A stretch of DNA of 10,642 bases from an uncultured archaeon (GCA_964586355.1 CAZPGO010000041.1:1-10642); one strand, 5' to 3'. Counted from the stretch's first letter, positions 1,944 to 10,594 are shown. The notes: generated by a model from the letters alone, not told the origin. Program-made: numbers and translations.

Positions 1944-2012
1944 ATGATCAAGAGAACTATTTTTTTATTTTCATTGATATTTCTATTTATGTTTTTAAAT
2001 CCTATTTTTGCA
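1944..2012 (+). other. Sec-type signal peptide of the protease
   Basis: Basic n-region (KR), a 17-residue hydrophobic core, then I-F-A followed by E (predicted cleavage after Ala23). Confidence 0.7.
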
Positions 2013-4778
2013 GAATCAACAAATCAAAATAATGTTTTTTCTGCTGGTGGTTTGGAAATTTATGGTAATAAAGATGATCTGATTTCATCTCATTTATCTC
2101 AAGACAACAACTTAGATCTGATATCATTAAGAAATAATAGAGTGGCAAGCAGTGTTCCGAATACAATGGGTAGTGCACCAAGAACAGGAGTCATAAATAT
2201 CCCTGTGTTATTTGTGAATTTTTCTGATGAGGCTCAAGATCCAGCAATTCCTCCATCGACATTTGATGATCTTTTTAATAGTTCTAATTATTTAAATGGT
2301 AATGGAATTAGTGTAAAAAAATATATTGAATCTCAATCATATTATAATGCAAGTTTAGGTCAAGGAGTAACTGTAAATTTTGTGATCTATCCAACCATAA
2401 GAACATTACCTCAAACAAGATCATTTTATACTCAATCAGGATCAATTGGATTAGTTGTAGTTCACGCAGTTCAAGCAAGTGACCCATATATTGATTTTTC
2501 ACAGTATGATGCAGATAATGATGGAAAAATGGATGGATTGATTGTTATAAGACCAGGCACACAATCTACGGCGTTATATTTGCCAACTGCAACCACCTGG
2601 GGTGCAAATTATAGTTATGTTTTTGATGGCAAAACACTAGGTAATTCATCAGTAATTCCTCAAAAAATAACTTCCACCGCTTGTTCTTCTGCACAAAATT
2701 ATGGGCACCCTGCCGATTGTAGACTTTCTACTATTATTGCAATACATGAGTTCATGCACGTTTTTGGTCTTCCTGATCTTTATGAGATTTGTAATGGTGC
2801 TCAGGTGGGCATGGGTTTAACTAATGCAAGTATGATGACTGTTAGTCGTCCTCCAAACAAACCAATCAATCTAGATCCATGGTCTAAGTTTTTTTTAGGT
2901 TGGGTTGATGCTATTGATGTTAATAGTTTAGATTATAGTAATTTTAATATTCCTTCTCCAGATAATAATAGAACCATTTTTATTTTAAGAAATAGTTCTA
3001 TGAACCCAAGAGAGTTTTTTATAGTAAGCAATCGTACAATTGTCTCAACCTCTCCAGACTATGGAATCCTTTGGCAACCAGGGTTTCCTCCATTTGGTGA
3101 TGGTGGTGTAGAGATCTATCATGTTGATGAGCAATATATTTCAGAGAAATATGTAATCAATGAGATCATGTGTGATCCTGATGGTCAATTTTATTCTGAT
3201 GCTGTATCTCATCCAGGCATTGTTTTTGAAAAAAATGTTATTTTTAATAGCACTTCTACTAGTTATGATTTAGGTTATCATAGTTTTTATTATAATGGAA
3301 CGTTTACTTATAATGGCACAACAATAAGTCAAAGTAATTTTGATGCCATTCAACGCCTGATTCCACCAAGTATTACTTTTGACGCCACCTCTAAATCTTA
3401 TAATGGTCAAGATACAAATATTGTTGTTCAAGCATTGACTGGTCCATCTTCAAATATGCCAGCAATATTAAAAGTGAAACCCGAAAGTCTTACACCAGAA
3501 GCCTCTGTTGTTGGTGGTCTTTATTATGCTCCAATTTCTGTTTCATTATCTACCACTCAACCAAACACAATTATTTATTATACAACAGATGGTTCAACAC
3601 CAACCTCTCAAAGTCAAGTTTACACAACACCTATTTCTGTAAATTCTAATACAACAATGACCATAAAAGCTAGAAGTTATGCTGATGGTTATTTACCAAG
3701 TCAAGTAATGACTCACACATATCAAGTAACCGGCACTGTGACGCCAGTTGTTTCTGATACTTCTAGTGGTGATCTTTATTTAGGTTCTTTGATCACTTTA
3801 AGTAATACCACTCTGGGTTCAACAATAAAATATACTCTTGATGGTAGTGATCCTACTCTTAGTTCTTTAACCTATGGCTCTCCAATAATTTTAAACAATG
3901 TTGGGCAAATCACTTTAAAGACAAGAGCCTTTTTAACCAATTGGCAACCAAGCGAGATATCTACATATAATTATAATGTTCTTGCTATTCCTGAAAATAA
4001 AATCTTAAGTTTTGGTTTTTTAAATGACATAAATATTTTAAATATGGTTATTGATCATGATCAAAATCTTGTAAATATTTATGTGCCATATAATAGTTAC
4101 ATTTCAGATTTAATTCCAGTAATTGTAATTTCAGAAAATGCAACCATTACTCCTGATCCTTCTATTCCACAAAATTTTTATAATAATCCAATTGAGTATA
4201 CAGTTACTTCATTATTAGGTTCAGAGCGCACCTATGTTGTAAGTGTTATTAGAAATCCAGCAGTAGAACCAGTAATTGTTAGTTTAGATAGTGGCAGTTA
4301 TTCTGGCCCACAGCAAATAACTTTATCAACTGCAACGCCTGGTGCTGTTATTAGATATACTCTTGATGGTTCTTATCCTTTATTATCTAGTCCAGCCTAT
4401 GTCGGTACACCAATAACAATAACAGACAGTTGTATCTTAAAAGCAAGAGCATACAAATATATCGGTCCAACTTTTGTTGCAGAAAGTATTGATGTTAGAT
4501 CTGCAAACACAAAATCTGATAATTCTAAATCAAACAACAACTCTTCAAAAAATATTCCAAATGTTACTCCTGCAAGCATTGTTTGGTTAACAAGTTATGA
4601 TAGTGTAAGAGAGTATGAAATTACAAGAGGAATAACTGAAACAATAATTTCAGAAAGAATATCAAGAAATAGTAATTCAAAAAATGAAAGAGAAAAACCC
4701 AAACCAGAAAAACAAGAAGTTATAACTTCAAATGAGGGTAAAGTGAATAATTCTGGATTATCGAAATCCAGGGATTAA
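1944..4778 (+). CDS. Secreted M6-family (immune inhibitor A-like) zinc metalloprotease with three C-terminal chitobiase-C-terminal-like modules
   Basis: 944-aa ORF. N-terminal Sec-type signal MIKRTIFLFSLIFLFMFLNPIFA|E. The catalytic region (about 2178-3135) has FSQYDADNDGKMDGLIVI, HEFMHVFGLPDLY (HExxH at 2745-2759) and LDPWSKFFLGWVD. As I recall, these match the M6 domain signature (InhA: HEFGHDLGLPDEY; ..WSK..LGW). No TM anchor. The tail is K/S/N/E-rich and low in complexity (about 4497-4775). Confidence 0.8.
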   Translation: MIKRTIFLFSLIFLFMFLNPIFAESTNQNNVFSAGGLEIYGNKDDLISSHLSQDNNLDLISLRNNRVASSVPNTMGSAPRTGVINIPVLFVNFSDEAQDPAIPPSTFDDLFNSSNYLNGNGISVKKYIESQSYYNASLGQGVTVNFVIYPTIRTLPQTRSFYTQSGSIGLVVVHAVQASDPYIDFSQYDADNDGKMDGLIVIRPGTQSTALYLPTATTWGANYSYVFDGKTLGNSSVIPQKITSTACSSAQNYGHPADCRLSTIIAIHEFMHVFGLPDLYEICNGAQVGMGLTNASMMTVSRPPNKPINLDPWSKFFLGWVDAIDVNSLDYSNFNIPSPDNNRTIFILRNSSMNPREFFIVSNRTIVSTSPDYGILWQPGFPPFGDGGVEIYHVDEQYISEKYVINEIMCDPDGQFYSDAVSHPGIVFEKNVIFNSTSTSYDLGYHSFYYNGTFTYNGTTISQSNFDAIQRLIPPSITFDATSKSYNGQDTNIVVQALTGPSSNMPAILKVKPESLTPEASVVGGLYYAPISVSLSTTQPNTIIYYTTDGSTPTSQSQVYTTPISVNSNTTMTIKARSYADGYLPSQVMTHTYQVTGTVTPVVSDTSSGDLYLGSLITLSNTTLGSTIKYTLDGSDPTLSSLTYGSPIILNNVGQITLKTRAFLTNWQPSEISTYNYNVLAIPENKILSFGFLNDINILNMVIDHDQNLVNIYVPYNSYISDLIPVIVISENATITPDPSIPQNFYNNPIEYTVTSLLGSERTYVVSVIRNPAVEPVIVSLDSGSYSGPQQITLSTATPGAVIRYTLDGSYPLLSSPAYVGTPITITDSCILKARAYKYIGPTFVAESIDVRSANTKSDNSKSNNNSSKNIPNVTPASIVWLTSYDSVREYEITRGITETIISERISRNSNSKNEREKPKPEKQEVITSNEGKVNNSGLSKSRD
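2745..2759 (+). other. HExxH zinc-binding / catalytic motif (HEFMH)
   Basis: Codons cat gag ttc atg cac in the ORF frame, immediately followed by VFGLPDLY. Confidence 0.8.
3513..4496 (+). repeat. Three CHB_HEX_C / Fn3-associated-like beta-sandwich modules (3513-3728, 3762-3980, 4290-4496), interrupted by a different beta-sandwich module (3993-4250)
   Basis: Shared pattern: I-(S/T)-L-S..(5-6)..I-(I/K/R)-Y-T-(T/L)-D-G-S-x-P...S..Y..PI......(I/L)-K-(A/T)-R-(A/S)-(Y/F). Examples are IIYYTTDGSTPTSQSQVYTTPI...IKARSY, IKYTLDGSDPTLSSLTYGSPI...LKTRAF and IRYTLDGSYPLLSSPAYVGTPI...LKARAY. Modules 2 and 3 share a 16-nt identity, atatactcttgatggt. Confidence 0.65.
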
Positions 4779-4800
4779 TTTATAAACTTAATTAATTATA

Positions 4801-4807
4801 TTTTTTT
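4801..4807 (+). terminator. Oligo-T (T7) tract downstream of the protease stop codon
   Basis: Seven consecutive T begin 23 nt after the TAA at 4776-4778. Archaeal RNA polymerase terminates at oligo-T tracts. Weak specificity in AT-rich DNA. Confidence 0.35.
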
Positions 4808-4831
4808 ATTGACATTATAATTATAAAATTA

Positions 4832-4840
4832 GGAAGTGAT
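4832..4840 (+). promoter_or_regulatory. Shine-Dalgarno-like site GGAAGTGAT upstream of the giant pilin-like gene
   Basis: Matches the complement of the generic archaeal 16S 3' end (GGAGGTGAT) at 8 of 9 positions. The GTGA core ends 6 nt before TTG 4846. The same spacing occurs at L4, L23 and L2 (see findings). Confidence 0.5.
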
Positions 4841-4845
4841 GAATT

Positions 4846-4944
4846 TTGATAAATATGAATAAAAAAGGGCAAATTGCAATAGAAATATTAGTTGTTTTAT
4901 CGATCTTAGTTATTGGCGGTATTTTTGTTGGAGTATATTATATC
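4846..4944 (+). other. Class III signal peptide / pilin-like N-terminal helix
   Basis: Short basic leader M(INM)NKKG, Gly at -1 (4867-4869), Gln at +1 (4870-4872), Glu at +5, then about 20 uninterrupted hydrophobic residues. This is the pattern processed by archaeal prepilin peptidases (PibD/FlaK/EppA). Q at +1 is typical of the DUF361 / Class_IIIsignal pilins of Methanococcus. Confidence 0.7.
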
Positions 4945-7900
4945 CAAGGAATTGGACAAAATCAACAAAAAGGAGCCACAACAAATTCAACTTTAGATTC
5001 TTTAGTTGATAATTTTACGGATCCATTTGATATTCCAGATAATACAGATGTTCCATTAAATAAAGTTGCAGCACCTGTTGCAATTCCATCAGAAGGTTTT
5101 TATCCTTACGGCACTTTAATTACATTAATATCTCACACAGATGATGCGATAATAAGATACAAACTTAATAGTGCTGATGTAAATGAATCATCGCCAATTT
5201 TTCCAAATAATTTTTATTTAACAGAAGATGTTCAAATATCAGCAGTTGCTTATAAGACTGGAATGGAACCAAGTTCAAAAGTTAAATTTACTTATACTGT
5301 AAATACAGTAATCGCAGCTTTTTTTACTGATATTCAAGTTGATGAAACTGCTCTGCCAACAGGGGTTGTGGCAGGCGCACCATTTACTTTGAAAGTTGTG
5401 GCAGAAGCAACTGTTCCATCTGTAAGATTATCCGAAGTAAGAATTAGCCAAAATGATGTTCCTACATCTGCTTGTAAATTTTTAGGTGTTGGTGCTGTTG
5501 GTAAAGATATTACTTGTACTAATGGTTCTTGTACAGATCTAGGTTATTTAACTAACCCAGAAGTTGCAGGTACAAGTTATTATAATAATTTTAAATTTTC
5601 TTGTAGTGAACCAGGATCCTATAGTTTTATATTTACTGGTGTCTTAAAAACAGAAGATAAAGAATATTCGCATATGACTTCTTCTCAATCAATTGTAATT
5701 GCACCACCAACACCAAACACAATTGTTGCAGAAATTATTTCTCCTCAAGATGGTTTATATTATAAAGATAAACCACTTATTTTGTCTTCAAACATAATTG
5801 GAGCAGAAAAAGAAGATGTTTTTTGTAATTGGTATGCAACAAGTAAAGAATCACAAGCAAGTTTATTTTTAAGTGATAATTGTGATGCTTTATATGACTT
5901 ATCTAATTCTGCTGATTTTGAAGTAGATAAAACATATGAAATAAATTTGTTTGTTTCTTCAAGATATGAAGATATTTCTGTTGCGGCAAATCCAAAAGTA
6001 ATTACAATTGTAGATTTTGAAAATTCAGATTATTTATTTTTTAAACCAGGTAGCGGTCAAGAAATGAATCAAACATTTGAAATGTATTTTTATACATCAA
6101 GAATTGCTGATTTTGAACAAGGCGGTTATTTTGATGTTCACGATTCCGATAATCATTGTAATTTTGAATTAACACGTGCAGCTCCTGAGCAACATGAGTT
6201 TGTTGATCCGGTTACTAGTGAAATTACTTATTATTATTCATATACTTTTAATTCTATTTGTAATGCCCCTGGCACAAAAACAATAACTGTTGAGTTTTTT
6301 CAACCAGATTTGCCAGAAGGAAAAGGCGAAGTTTTACCAGTAAGTTCTGTTACTACGACATATTTGATTTATGATGTGGTGCCTTTTGTTGATGTTGAAT
6401 TTGGAATATATTTTAATACTGGTCCAGCACTTCCATCAATGACCGAGGTATTTGATGAAGCATTGATCGTGAAAGGAAAAGAATCTTATTCAGATGAATT
6501 TTATTTTGCGGCACCATATCCTCCGAACCCAACAGCTTTTGTAGATATTTATCAAGGTCAGGAATTTTATATTTATCCATCAATTATATCAAACCCTCCA
6601 CAATATTTAGATGGTCAAGGAATTTGTACTGTTAAATTTACCCCTATGGCTTCAAATCCAGAAGGTAAACTACAAATTTATCAACAACCATGTAATCAAT
6701 ATAAAGGTTATCAAATCACAAAGTTAATTGGAGAATATAATGCACAATTATCTGTTACCGGGCCAAATGGGATGAGCTTTAGTAAAAGCAAATTAGTGCG
6801 TTTTAATACAAATCCGATATATTTTATTAACGATAATGTTTATCCAATTTATTATAAGGACAATAGTTTCCAAATAGAATTAGCAATTTCTAATCTGAAT
6901 AATTTATCGTTAACCGTTACAAATGATATATATAAAACTACAGACACATCCACAGCAGTTTCTTATATTTCTGCAATAACAGGAACATTACGTTTTTCTG
7001 GTGTTTTTGATCCTATGGAAGGATATGTTTTAATTAATTCATCTACATTTGCTTGTAATTCCTCAAATTCAATTTGTACAAATAATTATCAATTCTCAGA
7101 ATCTGGAAACTATAGAGTAAAAATTACTGCAACTACTCCATACGGAAATCAAGTAATAAAATGGGTTAATTTTAAAATTGTAGAGGAACCAGATGGTGCA
7201 GAAATTAGTTATGTTATAAGTAAAACACCAACAAATGTGGGTTTAACTGGATTATTATATAGGACCGTTGGTGCTAATACCTACTATAAGATAGGAGATT
7301 TTTGTGTTTGGAATATAGCTGGACAAATAATCAGAGGTAGTTGTAATATTACTCACAATTTTTCAACATTTGGTCCAAAAAATGTATCTGTTATTGTTTC
7401 TGAACAATCCGGAACACCAATTGCACAAGATGCAACAGCAATAATAAATATAGTGTCTCCACCACCAATTAATTCAAAGATCATTGCTGATAATCCAAAT
7501 TTATCTCTTGTTGTTGGAGAAAGCCGTGAATTCTTTGCTGGTTTTGAGTATCCAATAGGTGGTGGTGAAATTAAGTTTATTCAAGCCACAAGTTGTGCAG
7601 ATTATTGGTATGTTGAAGGAGTTCCATTCTACAATTATGGTTCCTGTCATTTTGATCATGAATTTAATGTGCCAGGAATATTTGAAATTTCTGCAATGAT
7701 TAATAACCCAGATGGAACACAGACAGAAGTTCTAACTTATGTAACTGTTTCAGAATCTCAAATTCTTGATCCTGTAAGTTATGGTGCTCAATGTACGTTA
7801 TATTATGATCCTGGCAACCCAGGAAATCCTAGTGATGCTTGTAAAATATATCAAATTGATTTCCAAGGTGGTGCTCGTCTGAATACACATGCAACTCATT

Positions 7901-8175
7901 TTAGATATAACTTTGTATTAAGAAATTCAAACAATCAACCAATTCATCAAACGGTTGGGGTATATAATCCATCAAAGTTAGCTAATGTTATTTCAGAATA
8001 TGATTACAAAAAAATAGATTTGGATTATATCGATTTAGTTGTGCCGTTATCCACGAGTATAAACACAGGTGGGAATTTACCATATACTTTTTGGATAGAG
8101 AACAACAATAATCAAAATGATTATACTGAGCAAAGTGGTGTAATTCAATGTTCTGTTATTCCGGGTTGTCCATGA
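4846..8175 (+). CDS. Giant (about 1100 aa) multidomain surface protein with an archaeal class III (type IV pilin-like) signal peptide
   Basis: Long ORF with stop TGA 8173-8175. The start is either TTG 4846 (favoured by SD spacing) or ATG 4855 (MNKKGQ...). N-terminus KKG|QIAIEILVVLSILVIGGIFVGVYYI. Then one CHB_HEX_C-like module, PPTP and SPPP linkers (5701-5715, 7456-7467) and multiple beta-sandwich domains, several of them PKD-like. 20 Cys residues, all in close pairs. Confidence 0.88.
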   Translation: MINMNKKGQIAIEILVVLSILVIGGIFVGVYYIQGIGQNQQKGATTNSTLDSLVDNFTDPFDIPDNTDVPLNKVAAPVAIPSEGFYPYGTLITLISHTDDAIIRYKLNSADVNESSPIFPNNFYLTEDVQISAVAYKTGMEPSSKVKFTYTVNTVIAAFFTDIQVDETALPTGVVAGAPFTLKVVAEATVPSVRLSEVRISQNDVPTSACKFLGVGAVGKDITCTNGSCTDLGYLTNPEVAGTSYYNNFKFSCSEPGSYSFIFTGVLKTEDKEYSHMTSSQSIVIAPPTPNTIVAEIISPQDGLYYKDKPLILSSNIIGAEKEDVFCNWYATSKESQASLFLSDNCDALYDLSNSADFEVDKTYEINLFVSSRYEDISVAANPKVITIVDFENSDYLFFKPGSGQEMNQTFEMYFYTSRIADFEQGGYFDVHDSDNHCNFELTRAAPEQHEFVDPVTSEITYYYSYTFNSICNAPGTKTITVEFFQPDLPEGKGEVLPVSSVTTTYLIYDVVPFVDVEFGIYFNTGPALPSMTEVFDEALIVKGKESYSDEFYFAAPYPPNPTAFVDIYQGQEFYIYPSIISNPPQYLDGQGICTVKFTPMASNPEGKLQIYQQPCNQYKGYQITKLIGEYNAQLSVTGPNGMSFSKSKLVRFNTNPIYFINDNVYPIYYKDNSFQIELAISNLNNLSLTVTNDIYKTTDTSTAVSYISAITGTLRFSGVFDPMEGYVLINSSTFACNSSNSICTNNYQFSESGNYRVKITATTPYGNQVIKWVNFKIVEEPDGAEISYVISKTPTNVGLTGLLYRTVGANTYYKIGDFCVWNIAGQIIRGSCNITHNFSTFGPKNVSVIVSEQSGTPIAQDATAIINIVSPPPINSKIIADNPNLSLVVGESREFFAGFEYPIGGGEIKFIQATSCADYWYVEGVPFYNYGSCHFDHEFNVPGIFEISAMINNPDGTQTEVLTYVTVSESQILDPVSYGAQCTLYYDPGNPGNPSDACKIYQIDFQGGARLNTHATHFRYNFVLRNSNNQPIHQTVGVYNPSKLANVISEYDYKKIDLDYIDLVVPLSTSINTGGNLPYTFWIENNNNQNDYTEQSGVIQCSVIPGCP
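5089..5301 (+). other. CHB_HEX_C / Fn3-associated-like module in the pilin-like protein, homologous to the three in the protease
   Basis: SEGFYPYGTLITLISHTDDAIIRYKLNSADVNESSPIFPNNFYLTEDVQISAVAYKTGMEPSSKVKFTYTV aligns position for position with the protease modules (ITL.S....IIRY.L......S..) and ends Y.V. Confidence 0.6.
5728..7749 (+). repeat. Series of degenerate Ig/PKD-like beta-sandwich domains, one Cys pair per domain
   Basis: The clearest PKD-like cores are CVWNIAGQIIRGSCNITHNFSTFGPKNVSVIVSEQSG...INIV (7303-7455), CADYWYVEGVPFYNYGSCHFDHEFNVPGIFEISAMINNPDGTQTEVLTYVTV (ends 7749), NNYQFSESGNYRVKITATTPYGN (about 7080-7150) and FCNWYATSKE...YEINLFVSS (about 5820-5960). Compare the PKD consensus W.FGDG....H.Y...G.Y.V.L.V.D..G. 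Confidence 0.5.
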
Positions 8176-8191
8176 TTGAATTAAGGTAAAA

Positions 8192-8218
8192 AGATAAGAT
8201 ATCCTCTTATCTCTTTTT
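8192..8218 (+). terminator. Hairpin plus T5 tract 17 nt after the giant gene's stop codon
   Basis: AGATAAGA (8192-8199) and TCTTATCT (8205-8212) form a perfect 8-bp stem with a 5-nt loop (TATCC), followed by C and TTTTT (8214-8218). Confidence 0.55.
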
Positions 8219-8305
8219 AAACCTTTCGCCACCATAATTATTCTTACATGTATTAGTTATATAATATATGAGTAACAAGTAAATTACCGTTACTGTAGAC
8301 TGTAT

Positions 8306-8355
8306 GTTAACAAACTTTTTAAAAAAGATCTAAACTTTTTTTTAAAAAAAGTTAA
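8306..8355. repeat. Two adjacent A/T palindromes of the form AAAC-T(n)-A(n)-G, flanked by GTTAA(C/T)
   Basis: First palindrome: CTTTTT a AAAAAG (8315-8327). Second: AACTTTTTTT t AAAAAAAGTT (8333-8353, 10-bp arms). AAACTTTTT is directly repeated at 8312 and 8332. GTTAAC lies at 8306-8311 and GTTAA at 8351-8355. The T8 run (8336-8343) could also act as a termination signal. Confidence 0.6.
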
Positions 8356-8362
8356 TATATAA

Positions 8363-8400
8363 ATGCAGAGATTCTAAAAAATCTTTTTCTGCATGTTTTT
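8363..8400 (+). terminator. Second hairpin followed by a T5 tract
   Basis: ATGCAGA (8363-8369) pairs with TCTGCAT (8388-8394). An inner GATT/AATC pairing (8370-8373 / 8380-8383) is possible. Followed by G and TTTTT (8396-8400). Confidence 0.4.
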
Positions 8401-8422
8401 AAAAAAATTAAATTAAAATATA

Positions 8423-8475: not shown

Positions 8476-9468
8476 ATGGGTAAAACAAATAAACCAAGAG
8501 CAGGATCAATGAGCTTTTATCCTAGAGTAAGAGCAAAATCCATTATTCCAAAGTTTAATTCTTTTGTAAGTCCACAAAAAGTAGGAATAACTGGAGTAAA
8601 GCCAATGTGTTTCTATGTCTTTAAAGCAGGAACCACACACGTTATTGCAAAAAATGCAAAAAAAGGCGCATCTTCTTATGGTCAAGAAAACTCTATTTCT
8701 GTTAGTGTGTTAGAAGCACCAGATATGAAAGTTATTGGAGCTAGATTTTATAAAGAAAATTTTCCTACAAAAGGTAAAACTGCTATCTTTGAATTTAGTA
8801 ATCAAGATAGTTTAGTTAAAAAAAGAATTTCTGGAAAAAAACAAAAAAAAATAACTCCTTTAGAAGAAGCTTTAAAAAGAAAAGATGAAGCAGACTCTTT
8901 AGTTTTATTAGCAACAGTTAATCCAGACAAAACAACAGTTGGTCAAAAAAAGCCAGTTATTGTTGAAGTTCCTTTATCTGGAACTTATGAAGAACAGATC
9001 AACTATTTAAAAGAAAAATTAAACAAAACTATTTCAGTTTCAGAAGTATTTGATATTGAAACAGTTTTAGATGTTAAAGGAGTAACCATTGGTCATGGAA
9101 CACAAGGACCAGTAAAAAGATTTGGCATAAAGATTCAAAGACCAAAGGCTCAAAAAATACAAAGACATGTAGGATCTATCAACCCATGGCATCCTGCAAC
9201 AGTAATGTATACTATTCCTAGAGCAGGTCAATATGGTTTCCATAATAGAACAACATTTAATAAAAAATTGTTAATGATTGACGAGGATACCTCAAAAATA
9301 AATCCAAAAAAAGGATTTATAAACTATGGTTTAGTAAAAAACAAATATCTGTTAGTTGCAGGATCTGTACCTGGTCCAACAAAAAGAATATTAGCTCTAA
9401 GACACACAATTAGAGAAAAACCAAAAACAAAATTAGAAGTAACCGATATAAATTACATCTCAAAATAA
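8476..9468 (+). CDS. rpl3: 50S ribosomal protein L3 (archaeal uL3)
   Basis: N-terminus MGKTNKPRAGSMSFYPRVRAKS matches the archaeal L3 start (MGK..RPRRGSL.F.PRKRA). Internal FKAGTTHV, GVTIGHGTQGPVKRFG and PWHPATV...RAGQYGFHNRT motifs are present. 330 aa is a typical length, and the gene sits first in the L3-L4-L23-L2 order. Confidence 0.95.
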   Translation: MGKTNKPRAGSMSFYPRVRAKSIIPKFNSFVSPQKVGITGVKPMCFYVFKAGTTHVIAKNAKKGASSYGQENSISVSVLEAPDMKVIGARFYKENFPTKGKTAIFEFSNQDSLVKKRISGKKQKKITPLEEALKRKDEADSLVLLATVNPDKTTVGQKKPVIVEVPLSGTYEEQINYLKEKLNKTISVSEVFDIETVLDVKGVTIGHGTQGPVKRFGIKIQRPKAQKIQRHVGSINPWHPATVMYTIPRAGQYGFHNRTTFNKKLLMIDEDTSKINPKKGFINYGLVKNKYLLVAGSVPGPTKRILALRHTIREKPKTKLEVTDINYISK

Positions 9469-9498
9469 TGTTATTTTAAAAATAAAAACTGATCTACA

Positions 9499-10308
9499 AT
9501 GAAAGCAAATGTTTATGATTTAGACGGAAAAGTAGTAAAAGAAATAGAACTACCTGTAGAAGTATTTAATGAAGAATATAGACCAGACTTGATAAAGAAA
9601 GCAGTAATTTCACAACAATCAAATTCTTATCAAAAGAAAGGTAATTCTCCATATTCTAATAGAGACAATACAGCAATCTATATTGGTATTAGAAAAGCAA
9701 ACCATGCAAATATTACTATTAATTCAGGACACGCAAGACTTCCAAGACTAAAAAATAGAAGAGTTTTAATGGCTGGAAGAGTTATGGGTGTTTCTCAAGC
9801 TGTTGGTGGACCAAGGGCTCACCCTCCAAAAACCACTAAAAATCTTATTAAAAAAATAAACTCAAAAGAAAGAACAAAGGCAATTCTTTCTGCAATATCT
9901 GCAACCACTAATCCAAAATTAGTAAGTGGTCGTGGACATATTATTAATGAAAATATGACTTTGCCAGTTATTTTTGATAATAGCCTAGAAGCAATGACAA
10001 AAACTAAAGAAGTATTAACAACTTTAGAAAAAATAGGCTTAGATAAAGATATCTTAAAAGCAAAAGAAAAAAAATCAGTAAGAGCTGGTAAAGGAAAATA
10101 TAGAGGAAGAAGATACAAGAAAAGAAAAAGTCTTTTAGTAATCCTTTCAGATGGAAAAAACAAAAAAGCTTTTACTAACCTAGAAGGTGTTGATGTAATT
10201 TCAGCAAAAAGACTTTCTATTAAAGATCTTGCACCAGGAACACATGCTGGAAGATTAACAATATTTAGTGAAGGGGCAATCTCAGAACTTAAAAAAAGAT
10301 TTGAATAA
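9499..10308 (+). CDS. rpl4: 50S ribosomal protein L4 (archaeal uL4)
   Basis: MKANVYDLDGKVVKEIELPVEVFNEEYRPDLIKKAVISQQSN matches the archaeal L4 N-terminal pattern (V.dl.G......eLP..F....R.DLI.rAV). Also GGPRAHPPK and a basic KGKYRGRRYKKRKS loop. Synteny between L3 and L23. Confidence 0.93.
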   Translation: MKANVYDLDGKVVKEIELPVEVFNEEYRPDLIKKAVISQQSNSYQKKGNSPYSNRDNTAIYIGIRKANHANITINSGHARLPRLKNRRVLMAGRVMGVSQAVGGPRAHPPKTTKNLIKKINSKERTKAILSAISATTNPKLVSGRGHIINENMTLPVIFDNSLEAMTKTKEVLTTLEKIGLDKDILKAKEKKSVRAGKGKYRGRRYKKRKSLLVILSDGKNKKAFTNLEGVDVISAKRLSIKDLAPGTHAGRLTIFSEGAISELKKRFE

Positions 10309-10321
10309 ATGTGAATTGATT

Positions 10322-10594
10322 ATGACTAATACTTTAGAATATTACCAGGTAATTGAATACCCTGTAATTACTGAAAAAACAGTAAATCTTATCTCAGCAG
10401 ATAACAAGATAACATTTGTTGTTAACAAAGTAGCAAAAAAAAGCGAAATAAAATCAGCTGTTGAGAAGCTATATAATGTTAAAGTAGAATCTGTTAACAT
10501 ATTATTTGATAGAAAAAACAGAAAAAAAGCATTCGTTAAACTAAAAAAAGGTTTTAATGCTCAAGATCTAGCAAACAAACTAGGAATATTATAA
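10322..10594 (+). CDS. rpl23: 50S ribosomal protein L23 (archaeal uL23)
   Basis: Contains I.YPVITEK. .NLI...NK.TF.V...A.K.EIK.AVE.LY.VKV..VN, the L23 signature. I place the start at ATG 10322, giving 90 aa (a typical length) with a GTGA motif 7 nt upstream. The ORF-track GTG 10268 would overlap the L4 3' end by 41 nt. Confidence 0.9.
   Translation: MTNTLEYYQVIEYPVITEKTVNLISADNKITFVVNKVAKKSEIKSAVEKLYNVKVESVNILFDRKNRKKAFVKLKKGFNAQDLANKLGIL

Follow-up and report, generated by a model that had tools for sequence, protein, structure and literature searches.

We report that a 10,642-nucleotide stretch of DNA from an uncultured archaeon (GCA_964586355.1, CAZPGO010000041.1:1-10642; referred to as the window, whose coordinates are used throughout) contains, at positions 4846 (or 4855) to 8175, an open reading frame (ORF) for a giant surface protein, hereafter the target. 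The evidence supports its N terminus as a genuine class III (prepilin-type) signal of the EppA subtype, with Gln at +1 and Glu at +5, and closely related strains hold unrelated proteins in its place. The reading that we tentatively favour, and consider possible though not quite probable, is that the target is a giant modular surface adhesin of Iainarchaeota, which would be processed by an EppA-like peptidase and displayed through its pilin-type head as a minor or terminal subunit of a type IV filament (TFF) of system 1. The source organism is assigned here to the Iainarchaeota (DPANN) because the best named relatives of the L3 protein encoded in the window are those of Candidatus Iainarchaeum sp. 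(61% identity) and Diapherotrites (38–47%). Numbers beginning with L and P denote comparison loci and comparison proteins, respectively.

Consistent with the original prediction, which had called an ORF of 1109 residues at 4846–8175, the target ORF lies on the plus strand and encodes 1109 amino acids (aa) when read from TTG 4846 or 1106 aa when read from ATG 4855. Public gene callers picked both starts, and either yields a legal leader, MINMNKKG from TTG and MNKKG from ATG. The leader peptide M(INM)NKKG (4846–4869), after whose Gly prepilin-peptidase cleavage is predicted, runs directly into a pilin-like hydrophobic helix, QIAIEILVVLSILVIGGIFVGVYYI (4870–4944, from sequence and hydropathy), with Q at +1 and E at +5; from ATG 4855 the protein starts MNKK-G/QIAIE-ILVVLSILVIGGIFVGVYYI (the slash marks the predicted cleavage site). 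The class III pattern named in the original prediction, Gly at -1, Gln at +1, Glu at +5 and a hydrophobic helix, can be read directly from the sequence as K-K-G(-1), Q(+1), E(+5) and then 28 uncharged residues, and it is backed by the reuse of this head on paralogues described below. Type IV pilin-like proteins have a short basic leader with Gly or Ala at -1, no more than about 35 residues from the N terminus, as the target does. PilFind requires a cleavage motif, at least 14 uncharged residues directly after it and exactly one transmembrane (TM) segment, and it takes only proteins of <350 aa (PMC3244431). In the target, the PilFind motif [GAS]-x4-[DE] stands at residue 5 (residue 8 from the TTG start), and the head is the sole hydrophobic segment, the Kyte-Doolittle window exceeding 1.6 only from residues 3–16 onward; every PilFind property is present except the length, which is 1106 aa. 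Because of this length filter, PilFind would reject the target whatever its N terminus. Further, the tetrad KGQI of the target is the processing site listed for EpdE, the major pilin of Methanococcus maripaludis (PMC4371748, Table 1), and the target's G/QIAIE shows the combination of Gln +1 and Glu +5 that is characteristic of EppA substrates (PMC4371748).

Over codons 1–50, the protein is 94% identical to a homologue with an overall identity of 51%, and 17% of the identical codons differ synonymously. Because these codons are conserved with synonymous changes, we conclude that the helix is translated and under purifying selection. A start downstream of the helix, which the original prediction had named as a possible refutation, was ruled out by the synonymous changes in conserved helix codons together with the Shine-Dalgarno-like sequence GGAAGTGA at 4832–4839, ahead of the target start. 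A word-indexed search with the first 68 residues returned no matches, and sequence searches of the PDB with the N terminus and the family profile returned nothing useful and no match to solved pilins.

Support for the signal call comes from other proteins that bear the same head, because it tops many paralogues with unrelated passengers. Residues 1–50 of the target are 32–50% identical to the N termini of 10 other giants of 770–1167 aa (loci L019, L087, L090 and L091), and in BLAST comparisons these residues were the only common part, with the exception of P0019, which also shares D1 and D2 (the domains D1 to D9 are described below). The bodies of the 10 giants, unrelated to that of the target, contain DUF285 (BspA-like) domains, GLUG domains or no known domains. 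The head motif is invariant across orthologues; [GA]-Q-x-x-x-E is found in most of the 10 paralogues, and Glu+5 and the Gly-rich helix face are retained in most giants. In bacterial pilins, it is assembly, not cleavage, that requires Glu5. Such a conserved head on a variable body is the pattern of pilin families.

The same head was sought more widely by scanning 185,579 species genomes for [KR][KR]GQI[AS]xE followed by two hydrophobic residues, which returned 81 loci. About 50 of these are archaeal (DPANN phyla, Thermococci and Methanobacteria), with the motif 1–8 residues after the Met; most of the archaeal proteins are 93–290 aa long and several are 711–974 aa. We regard the bacterial matches as due to chance because in most of the ~30 loci the motif is internal or lies in tiny ORFs. 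Pfam Class_IIIsignal (PF04021) matched 14 of 19 aligned N termini at E ≤1 (best E 1.6e-7). Relatives of the whole target amounted to only three clusters among 5.8 billion proteins, all from related metagenome-assembled genomes (MAGs) with the same gene order. An exhaustive HMMER search gave 6,717 distant matches, nearly all through the common CHB_HEX_C domain (D1), and only P0019, P0047, P0042 and P0093 were informative among them. The suggestion that the family is undescribed holds for the exact family; its kind is known from bacterial modular pilins and large archaeal class III proteins.

The neighbours of the giants recur as well, and together they form a conserved island made up of a surface protein with a C-terminal anchor, an M6-like metalloprotease and between one and four class III giants. 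In the window, the gene directly before the target region encodes a 944-aa M6-like (InhA-type) secreted metalloprotease (1944–4778; Pfam, NCBIfam) that has a Sec signal peptide and an HEFMH zinc motif, along with three CHB_HEX_C_1 domains and one DUF5018-like domain. Its orthologue in L019 (33% identity over 781 aa, E 3e-98) is also followed by a class III giant, a DUF285/BspA-like protein. The pairing of protease and giant recurs in L087, where a CTERM-anchored surface protein, four tandem class III giants (1047, 923, 913 and 1148 aa) and an M6 protease follow each other in this order, and in L091, where three class III proteins and an M6 protease lie upstream of rpl3. No other partner of the class III giants was as well conserved as the M6-like protease, which stands before or after them in four genome groups. 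The conserved partnership with this protease, the tandem arrays of giants and the cassette-like replacement of passengers described below go beyond the original prediction.

A small pilin with the same motif (KGQIS.E) lies directly after a large multi-TM protein in four Iainarchaeum MAG loci (L029, L060, L062 and L085). In L060 and L085, the multi-TM protein, of 361–374 aa, matches Peptidase_A24 and Arc_PepC, and before it lie a T2SSE ATPase (150–164 bits) and two T2SSF proteins (Pfam); these are system 1 (Epd-type) pilus operons (L060:1455–8000 and L085:1740–8000). L029 and L062 have an ORF layout like that of L060 and L085, Pfam having been applied to their pilin ORFs only. System 1 has been reported in DPANN, with a major pilin that has no globular domain (bioRxiv 10.64898/2026.04.22.720090). 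Because small pilins with the same motif adjoin operons for the ATPase, the platform proteins and the A24 peptidase in the same phylum, these loci lend further support to the signal call. L019 itself encodes, two genes upstream of its giant, a 105-aa class III protein whose helix is of the same type and whose length leaves little space for a globular domain (Class_IIIsignal 22.5 bits; weak Flp1_like match). Elsewhere in the genome to which L019 belongs, AMR_MDS_2477, four small pilin-like genes (149, 168, 97 and 167 aa) stand in a row at L042:2869–4606 on the minus strand.

We also examined the body of the target. Residues 31–77 (4945–5085) form, by composition, a low-complexity linker rich in Gln, Asn, Thr, Asp and Pro, which was modelled only in the unusable full-length model (predicted local distance difference test, pLDDT, 21–39), a model that is silent on disorder. 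The passenger comprises ~9 beta-rich segments, where about ten had been predicted; they are defined by local Cys pairs, with Pro-rich linkers between some of them. All 20 Cys are invariant across homologues and fall in local pairs, and the target has 12 N-x-S/T glycosylation sequons. D1 (5086–5277) is a CHB_HEX_C_1/Fn3_assoc beta-sandwich, in agreement with the CHB_HEX_C-like module noticed earlier; the Pfam match (30.2 bits, cut-off 22) covers residues 81–144 of the 1109-aa form. D2 (5302–5724; Cys 207/250 and 221/226) is an immunoglobulin (Ig)-like beta-sandwich: its AlphaFold2 model on a 9-sequence alignment is all beta, with a pLDDT of 88.8 and a predicted template modelling score (pTM) of 0.83, and Foldseek searches of the PDB returned TRAP-beta, PapD-like and complement MG domains at template modelling scores of 0.45–0.5, that is, generic Ig-like sandwiches. 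D2-like repeats occur in P0019 and P0047 (exhaustive HMMER search, hmmsearch).

D3 (5713–6018), a small beta domain with C324–C343 that follows an APPTPNT linker, and the beta domains D7 and D8 (7186–7758; C817–C830 and C914–C931, with an SPPPINS linker between them) are mutually related according to hhalign, at probabilities of 64–71% (64%, E 6e-5, for D3 versus D7; 71%, E 3.8e-5, for D7 versus D8). D4–D6 (6019–7185; Cys pairs 435/469, 591/613 and 734/741) and the C-terminal D9 (7759–8175; Cys pairs 980/996 and 1099/1105, ending in ...CSVIPGCP before the stop) are beta-rich only in the poor full-length AlphaFold2 model, which was kept out of the fold search because its pLDDT, on a 3-sequence alignment, was 34.7. 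Pfam gave no significant matches on eight separate domain segments, and PKD_4 at residues 747–768 stayed below threshold (22.8 bits versus 27). Overall, the chain of beta-sandwiches is supported for five of the nine segments (D1, D2, D3, D7 and D8) and plausible for the others, and D2 is the only domain with a confident fold. The target has no C-terminal anchor, and the results support an extracellular multi-domain stalk without a second anchor. At L002:2639–3061 (GCA_028693335.1), we observed that the homologue ends after D8 and that D9 is a separate ORF 13 nucleotides further on; possible explanations are a pseudogene, an error in sequencing or a programmed split.

The distal part of the target is hypervariable (6172–8165; blastn against L001 and sliding identity). 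Compared with L001, a relative that is 83–84% identical, DNA similarity in this segment is limited to a 76-nucleotide stretch (7188–7262, 75%), and the flanking genes are 85–89% identical in protein. In windows of 50 residues, the target and the L001 protein are 61–94% identical over residues 1–400 and 24–47% identical beyond residue 450. Comparison of the window with L090 and L095 by blastn revealed a still larger replaceable cassette (4900–8212), all of which is replaced by an unrelated passenger in these two loci, which are 94–98% identical downstream. The L090 DNA is 94% identical from 38 nucleotides past the target stop, and upstream only the promoter and signal region aligns (72%); the protein in its slot is a 1167-aa class III protein with CHB_HEX_C and GLUG domains. 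L095, which is 98.5% identical to L090 downstream, holds a third passenger, with a Hint-like C terminus. Three unrelated passengers therefore occupy one slot in strains that are 94–98% identical in the flanks. Because related strains hold quite different proteins at the same spot, the target is probably an exchangeable adhesin.

The variability of the slot likely stems from recombination between strains. A diversity-generating retroelement (DGR) was considered as its source and rejected: no reverse transcriptase, template/variable repeat pair or long repeats were found in the window, and the divergence spans whole domains rather than adenine-templated sites. A genuine DGR was observed in another genome of the phylum (L092:1–2631; Ca. 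Iainarchaeum sp., GCA_028700115.1), with bAvd, an RVT_1 reverse transcriptase, a template repeat (1239–1359) and a variable repeat (162–282) that are 88% identical and have almost all mismatches at template adenines. Only a few kb separate this element from the surface-protein gene upstream of rpl3, but the gene that it targets is a different one, at the contig edge. Between L001 and L003, which carry the same allele type, the target gene is a mosaic of blocks of 100% and blocks of 68–82% identity, which points to intragenic recombination. As a further observation, the L095 passenger (L095:5609–7384, minus strand) carries a terminal Hint/intein-like domain, whose Intein_splicing score of 34.3 bits is just under the cut-off; this suggests an autoprocessing or toxin-like C terminus.

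In the mechanism that we favour, the N-terminal helix would insert the target into the membrane, and an EppA-like A24 prepilin peptidase would remove the leader M(INM)NKKG by cleaving after its Gly, so that the mature protein would have Gln at +1 and Glu at +5. System 1, with one ATPase and two TadC-like platform proteins, would then build the released helix into the helical core of a fibre, either a thin one of the Epd/Flp type or a short pseudopilus, in which the target would be a terminal or minor subunit. The ~45-residue linker and the stalk of ~9 disulfide-stabilised beta domains would point outward, the distal domains would bind a ligand on a partner cell or surface, and recombination would swap them between strains. 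The co-encoded M6-like metalloprotease may have as its substrate either the adhesin or the surface that the adhesin binds. We infer the adhesin function and the role of the protease from the BspA-like and GLUG modules in paralogues, the lectin modules in analogues and the conserved gene pairing. Filament display is favoured because a head with Glu+5 and a Gly-rich face is kept on otherwise unrelated bodies, and because one related island also encodes a small class III protein whose helix is of the same type. Since the major pilins of system 1 have no globular domain, a subunit consisting only of a helix and a linker is conceivable on steric grounds.

Several observations weigh against display on a filament. 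No pilin globular domain is detectable after the helix, and the linker at 4945–5085 has no family match in Pfam. On the N terminus of the target, the Class_IIIsignal model, a check put forward in the original prediction, scored below its cut-off (11.1 versus 23.7 bits), and so did N_methyl (PF07963; 15.9 versus 21.2 bits) and TIGR04205 (19.7 versus 65 bits), so that dedicated hidden Markov models (HMMs) make no signal call; the recall of profile HMMs for pilin motifs is known to be low, at ~49% (PMC3244431). A leave-one-out HMM test, in which a model built only from the N termini of small pilins gave 31.9 bits for the target and 4.2 bits for the Sec signal of its neighbour, is partly circular, namely in its motif part, since the pattern used to collect the comparison loci was derived from the motif of the target. 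The target also lies outside any pilus operon; neither the window nor the 23 kb of L001 encodes a pilin, peptidase or ATPase, and the machinery was seen only in other genomes of the phylum, the coverage of the target's own lineage being 10–33 kb. Further, a genome can encode several giants, as many as four of them in tandem, and the fibre would have to accommodate all of them. Lastly, archaeal class III proteins other than filament subunits are well known, such as the sugar-binding proteins of Sulfolobus.

The last point leads to the main rival of filament display, a bindosome-like arrangement in which the class III signal is cleaved and the mature protein stays tethered by its helix in the cytoplasmic membrane or joins a small non-filamentous assembly. 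It would fit the missing pilin globular domain, the flexible linker straight after the helix and the position of the gene, which lies not in a pilus operon but in a surface island that also encodes an M6 protease and a protein with a C-terminal anchor, and thousands of archaeal class III substrate-binding proteins take this route (bioRxiv 10.64898/2026.04.22.720090; PMC4371748). We consider it somewhat unlikely, however: Glu+5 and a specific Gly-rich helix pattern are kept across paralogues, beyond the needs of a plain anchor, one related island contains a helix-only small pilin of the same helix type, and even the Sulfolobus binding proteins rely on an assembly system that resembles that of pili. 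If, alternatively, the helix were an ordinary, uncleaved N-terminal TM anchor giving a type II topology, the G-Q...E motif would have no role in processing. In favour of this, the scores of the curated signal models are sub-threshold, the related CHB_HEX_C protein P0042 does have a plain N-terminal TM anchor without the motif, and the cleavage motif alone is common in proteomes (PMC3244431). What makes this explanation quite unlikely is that the full motif is exactly N-terminal, invariant in orthologues and mostly kept in 10 paralogues with unrelated bodies; that it falls 1–8 residues after the Met in the ~50 archaeal matches of the motif scan but not in most of the ~30 bacterial ones; and that the phylum encodes a matching large A24 peptidase beside pilins with the same motif.

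Finally, the target might be no adhesin but a structural component of the envelope, or one of the S-layer type, or else a soluble protein secreted via Sec. This we regard as very unlikely, even though a large, Cys-stabilised beta protein with 12 sequons, encoded next to another large envelope protein, would suit an envelope role. Wholesale replacement between strains whose flanks are 94–98% identical is unexpected for structural envelope proteins, and the paralogues bear adhesin-type modules (BspA-like DUF285 and GLUG); the 25-residue hydrophobic stretch has no Ala-x-Ala-type site, whereas the Sec signal of the neighbour is clear. The adhesin on a pilin head, which remains our preferred reading, can be extended to a broader speculation that we hold to be unlikely, namely that Iainarchaeota, and perhaps other DPANN, use recombination-prone slots or tandem arrays to pair a conserved pilin head with swappable adhesin bodies, which would serve as alternative tips of Epd/Flp-type pili and set partner or host specificity. 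If so, the swappable-tip slot would be the equivalent, in archaea, of the cassette switching of antigens or tail fibres, and the M6 protease would act alongside it.

The closest parallels to the target are found among bacterial modular type IV pilins such as PilB and PilC of Streptococcus sanguinis, in which a class III signal and alpha1-N head are likewise fused to adhesion modules that are not pilus-specific. More than 1,200 such proteins in 264 architectures, the largest of 860 aa, were catalogued by Raynaud et al. (2021), multi-domain ones in ultrasmall bacteria of the candidate phyla radiation (CPR) among them, and in their proposal the head serves to mount the module on the fibre, probably at the tip (PMC8179133). 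The target differs in being archaeal, of the Q+1 subtype and longer than that maximum, and bacterial modular pilins have a complete pilin fold, with alpha1 packed on a beta-sheet, before the module and an IPR012902/N_methyl match, whereas in the target only the helix is recognisable and the N_methyl score is sub-threshold. With the Epd pilins of M. maripaludis (EppA substrates; Class_IIIsignal, formerly DUF361) the target shares K-G/Q-I and Glu+5; the Epd major pilin is helix-dominated, as is the target head, and the phylum of the target has the machinery of system 1, in which two platform genes are accompanied by a large A24 peptidase. The target is, however, ~10 times larger, is not encoded with the machinery and reaches only 11.1 bits with the Pfam model. 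Relatively large FlaFind-positive archaeal pilins are on record (PMC4371748).

Like the target, the proteins of the Sulfolobus bindosome and other archaeal class III substrate-binding proteins combine a class III signal with a large extracellular non-fibre protein encoded outside the assembly operon. These, however, have single solute-binding domains, are linked to ATP-binding cassette (ABC) transporters and are processed by PibD without a requirement for Q+1/E+5, whereas the target, a stalk of multiple domains, has no transporter in its gene context. Large adhesin-like, beta-rich proteins with conserved Cys have also been described in archaeal type IV loci and proposed to decorate tips (PMC4858521; bioRxiv 10.64898/2026.04.22.720090). 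These Ig-rich/PilY-like adhesins (arCOG05616 and the DUF2341 proteins of arCOG03508) resemble the target in being large and beta-rich with multiple conserved Cys, but they are defined by their position in pilus loci, where the target's island has a protease and a CTERM-anchored protein instead, and family searches found no sequence similarity between them and the target. Overall, the target resembles known modular and class III proteins yet falls outside them in size, in curated HMM scores and in lacking a recognisable pilin fold. What is new is the unannotated Iainarchaeota family, its island with M6 protease and CTERM-anchored protein, the tandem arrays and the hypervariable slot beside rpl3.

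A second, unrelated family of class III giants was observed in Micrarchaeota (including Ca. Micrarchaeum sp. A_DKE) and Marsarchaeota (L010, L022, L032, L033 and L034). In L010 (933 aa) and L032 (974 aa), an N-terminal [KR][KR]G/QIALEFLIVYS helix precedes three Laminin_G_3 lectin domains (Pfam, applied to these two giants); the proteins of L022 (711 aa), L033 (930 aa) and L034 (at least 546 aa, partial) are similar in head and size, and in L033 a 629-aa Laminin_G_3 protein adjoins the giant. As analogues of the target, the Laminin_G_3 giants (L010, L032, L033 and L034), at 930–974 aa, have a [KR][KR]G/QIALE head and lectin-type domains, but their helix type and passenger (three ConA-like lectin domains) are different, and no M6 partner appears in the visible flanks.

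Little is known of how DPANN archaea recognise and hold their partner cells, and the majority of their large surface proteins lack annotation. The locus described here is a sequence-defined candidate for such partner recognition, in that it combines a reused pilin head, a conserved protease partner and swapped passengers; replacement of whole passengers between near-identical strains is the signature expected of a specificity determinant. Because rule-based pilin finders drop proteins of >350 aa and Pfam signal models give such heads sub-threshold scores, giant class III proteins are missed systematically in surveys of archaeal type IV systems.

Regarding the remainder of the window, its G+C content is ~30%, every gene is on the plus strand and no structured RNA was found at Rfam gathering thresholds. 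The target is preceded by an AT-rich conserved region (4779–4845), a putative promoter with TATA-like boxes TTTATAAA at 4779–4786 and TTATAATTATAAAA at about 4815–4828; in a three-genome comparison (window, L001 and L003), the 76 nucleotides upstream of the target had a mean column identity of 96%. Downstream, rpl3, rpl4 and rpl23 mark the start of a ribosomal protein operon (8476–10594; Pfam), whose rpl3 end is the fixed right-hand anchor of the slot and served as taxonomic marker. The first gene of the surface island (1–1863, frame-1 translation, open at the left window edge) encodes the C-terminal 620 aa of a surface protein of ~993 aa with a Sec signal, the full-length copy of which is found at L001:4028–7009; the same protein type precedes the giants in L087. 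Its C-terminal end consists of a TM helix and a KKKRK tail, a CTERM-like anchor, the NCBIfam matches to CTERM sorting domains being weak. In two related genomes, a small ORF of 149–183 aa (L001:2129–2578, overlooked by gene callers, and L092:3603–4154) precedes this large Sec-signal surface protein, whose L092 copy lies at 5175–8402. The small ORF contains Cys/Arg/His motifs and a weak match to Exosortase_EpsH (E 0.005, 16.7 bits), and it and the large surface protein may be a mini-archaeosortase and its substrate.

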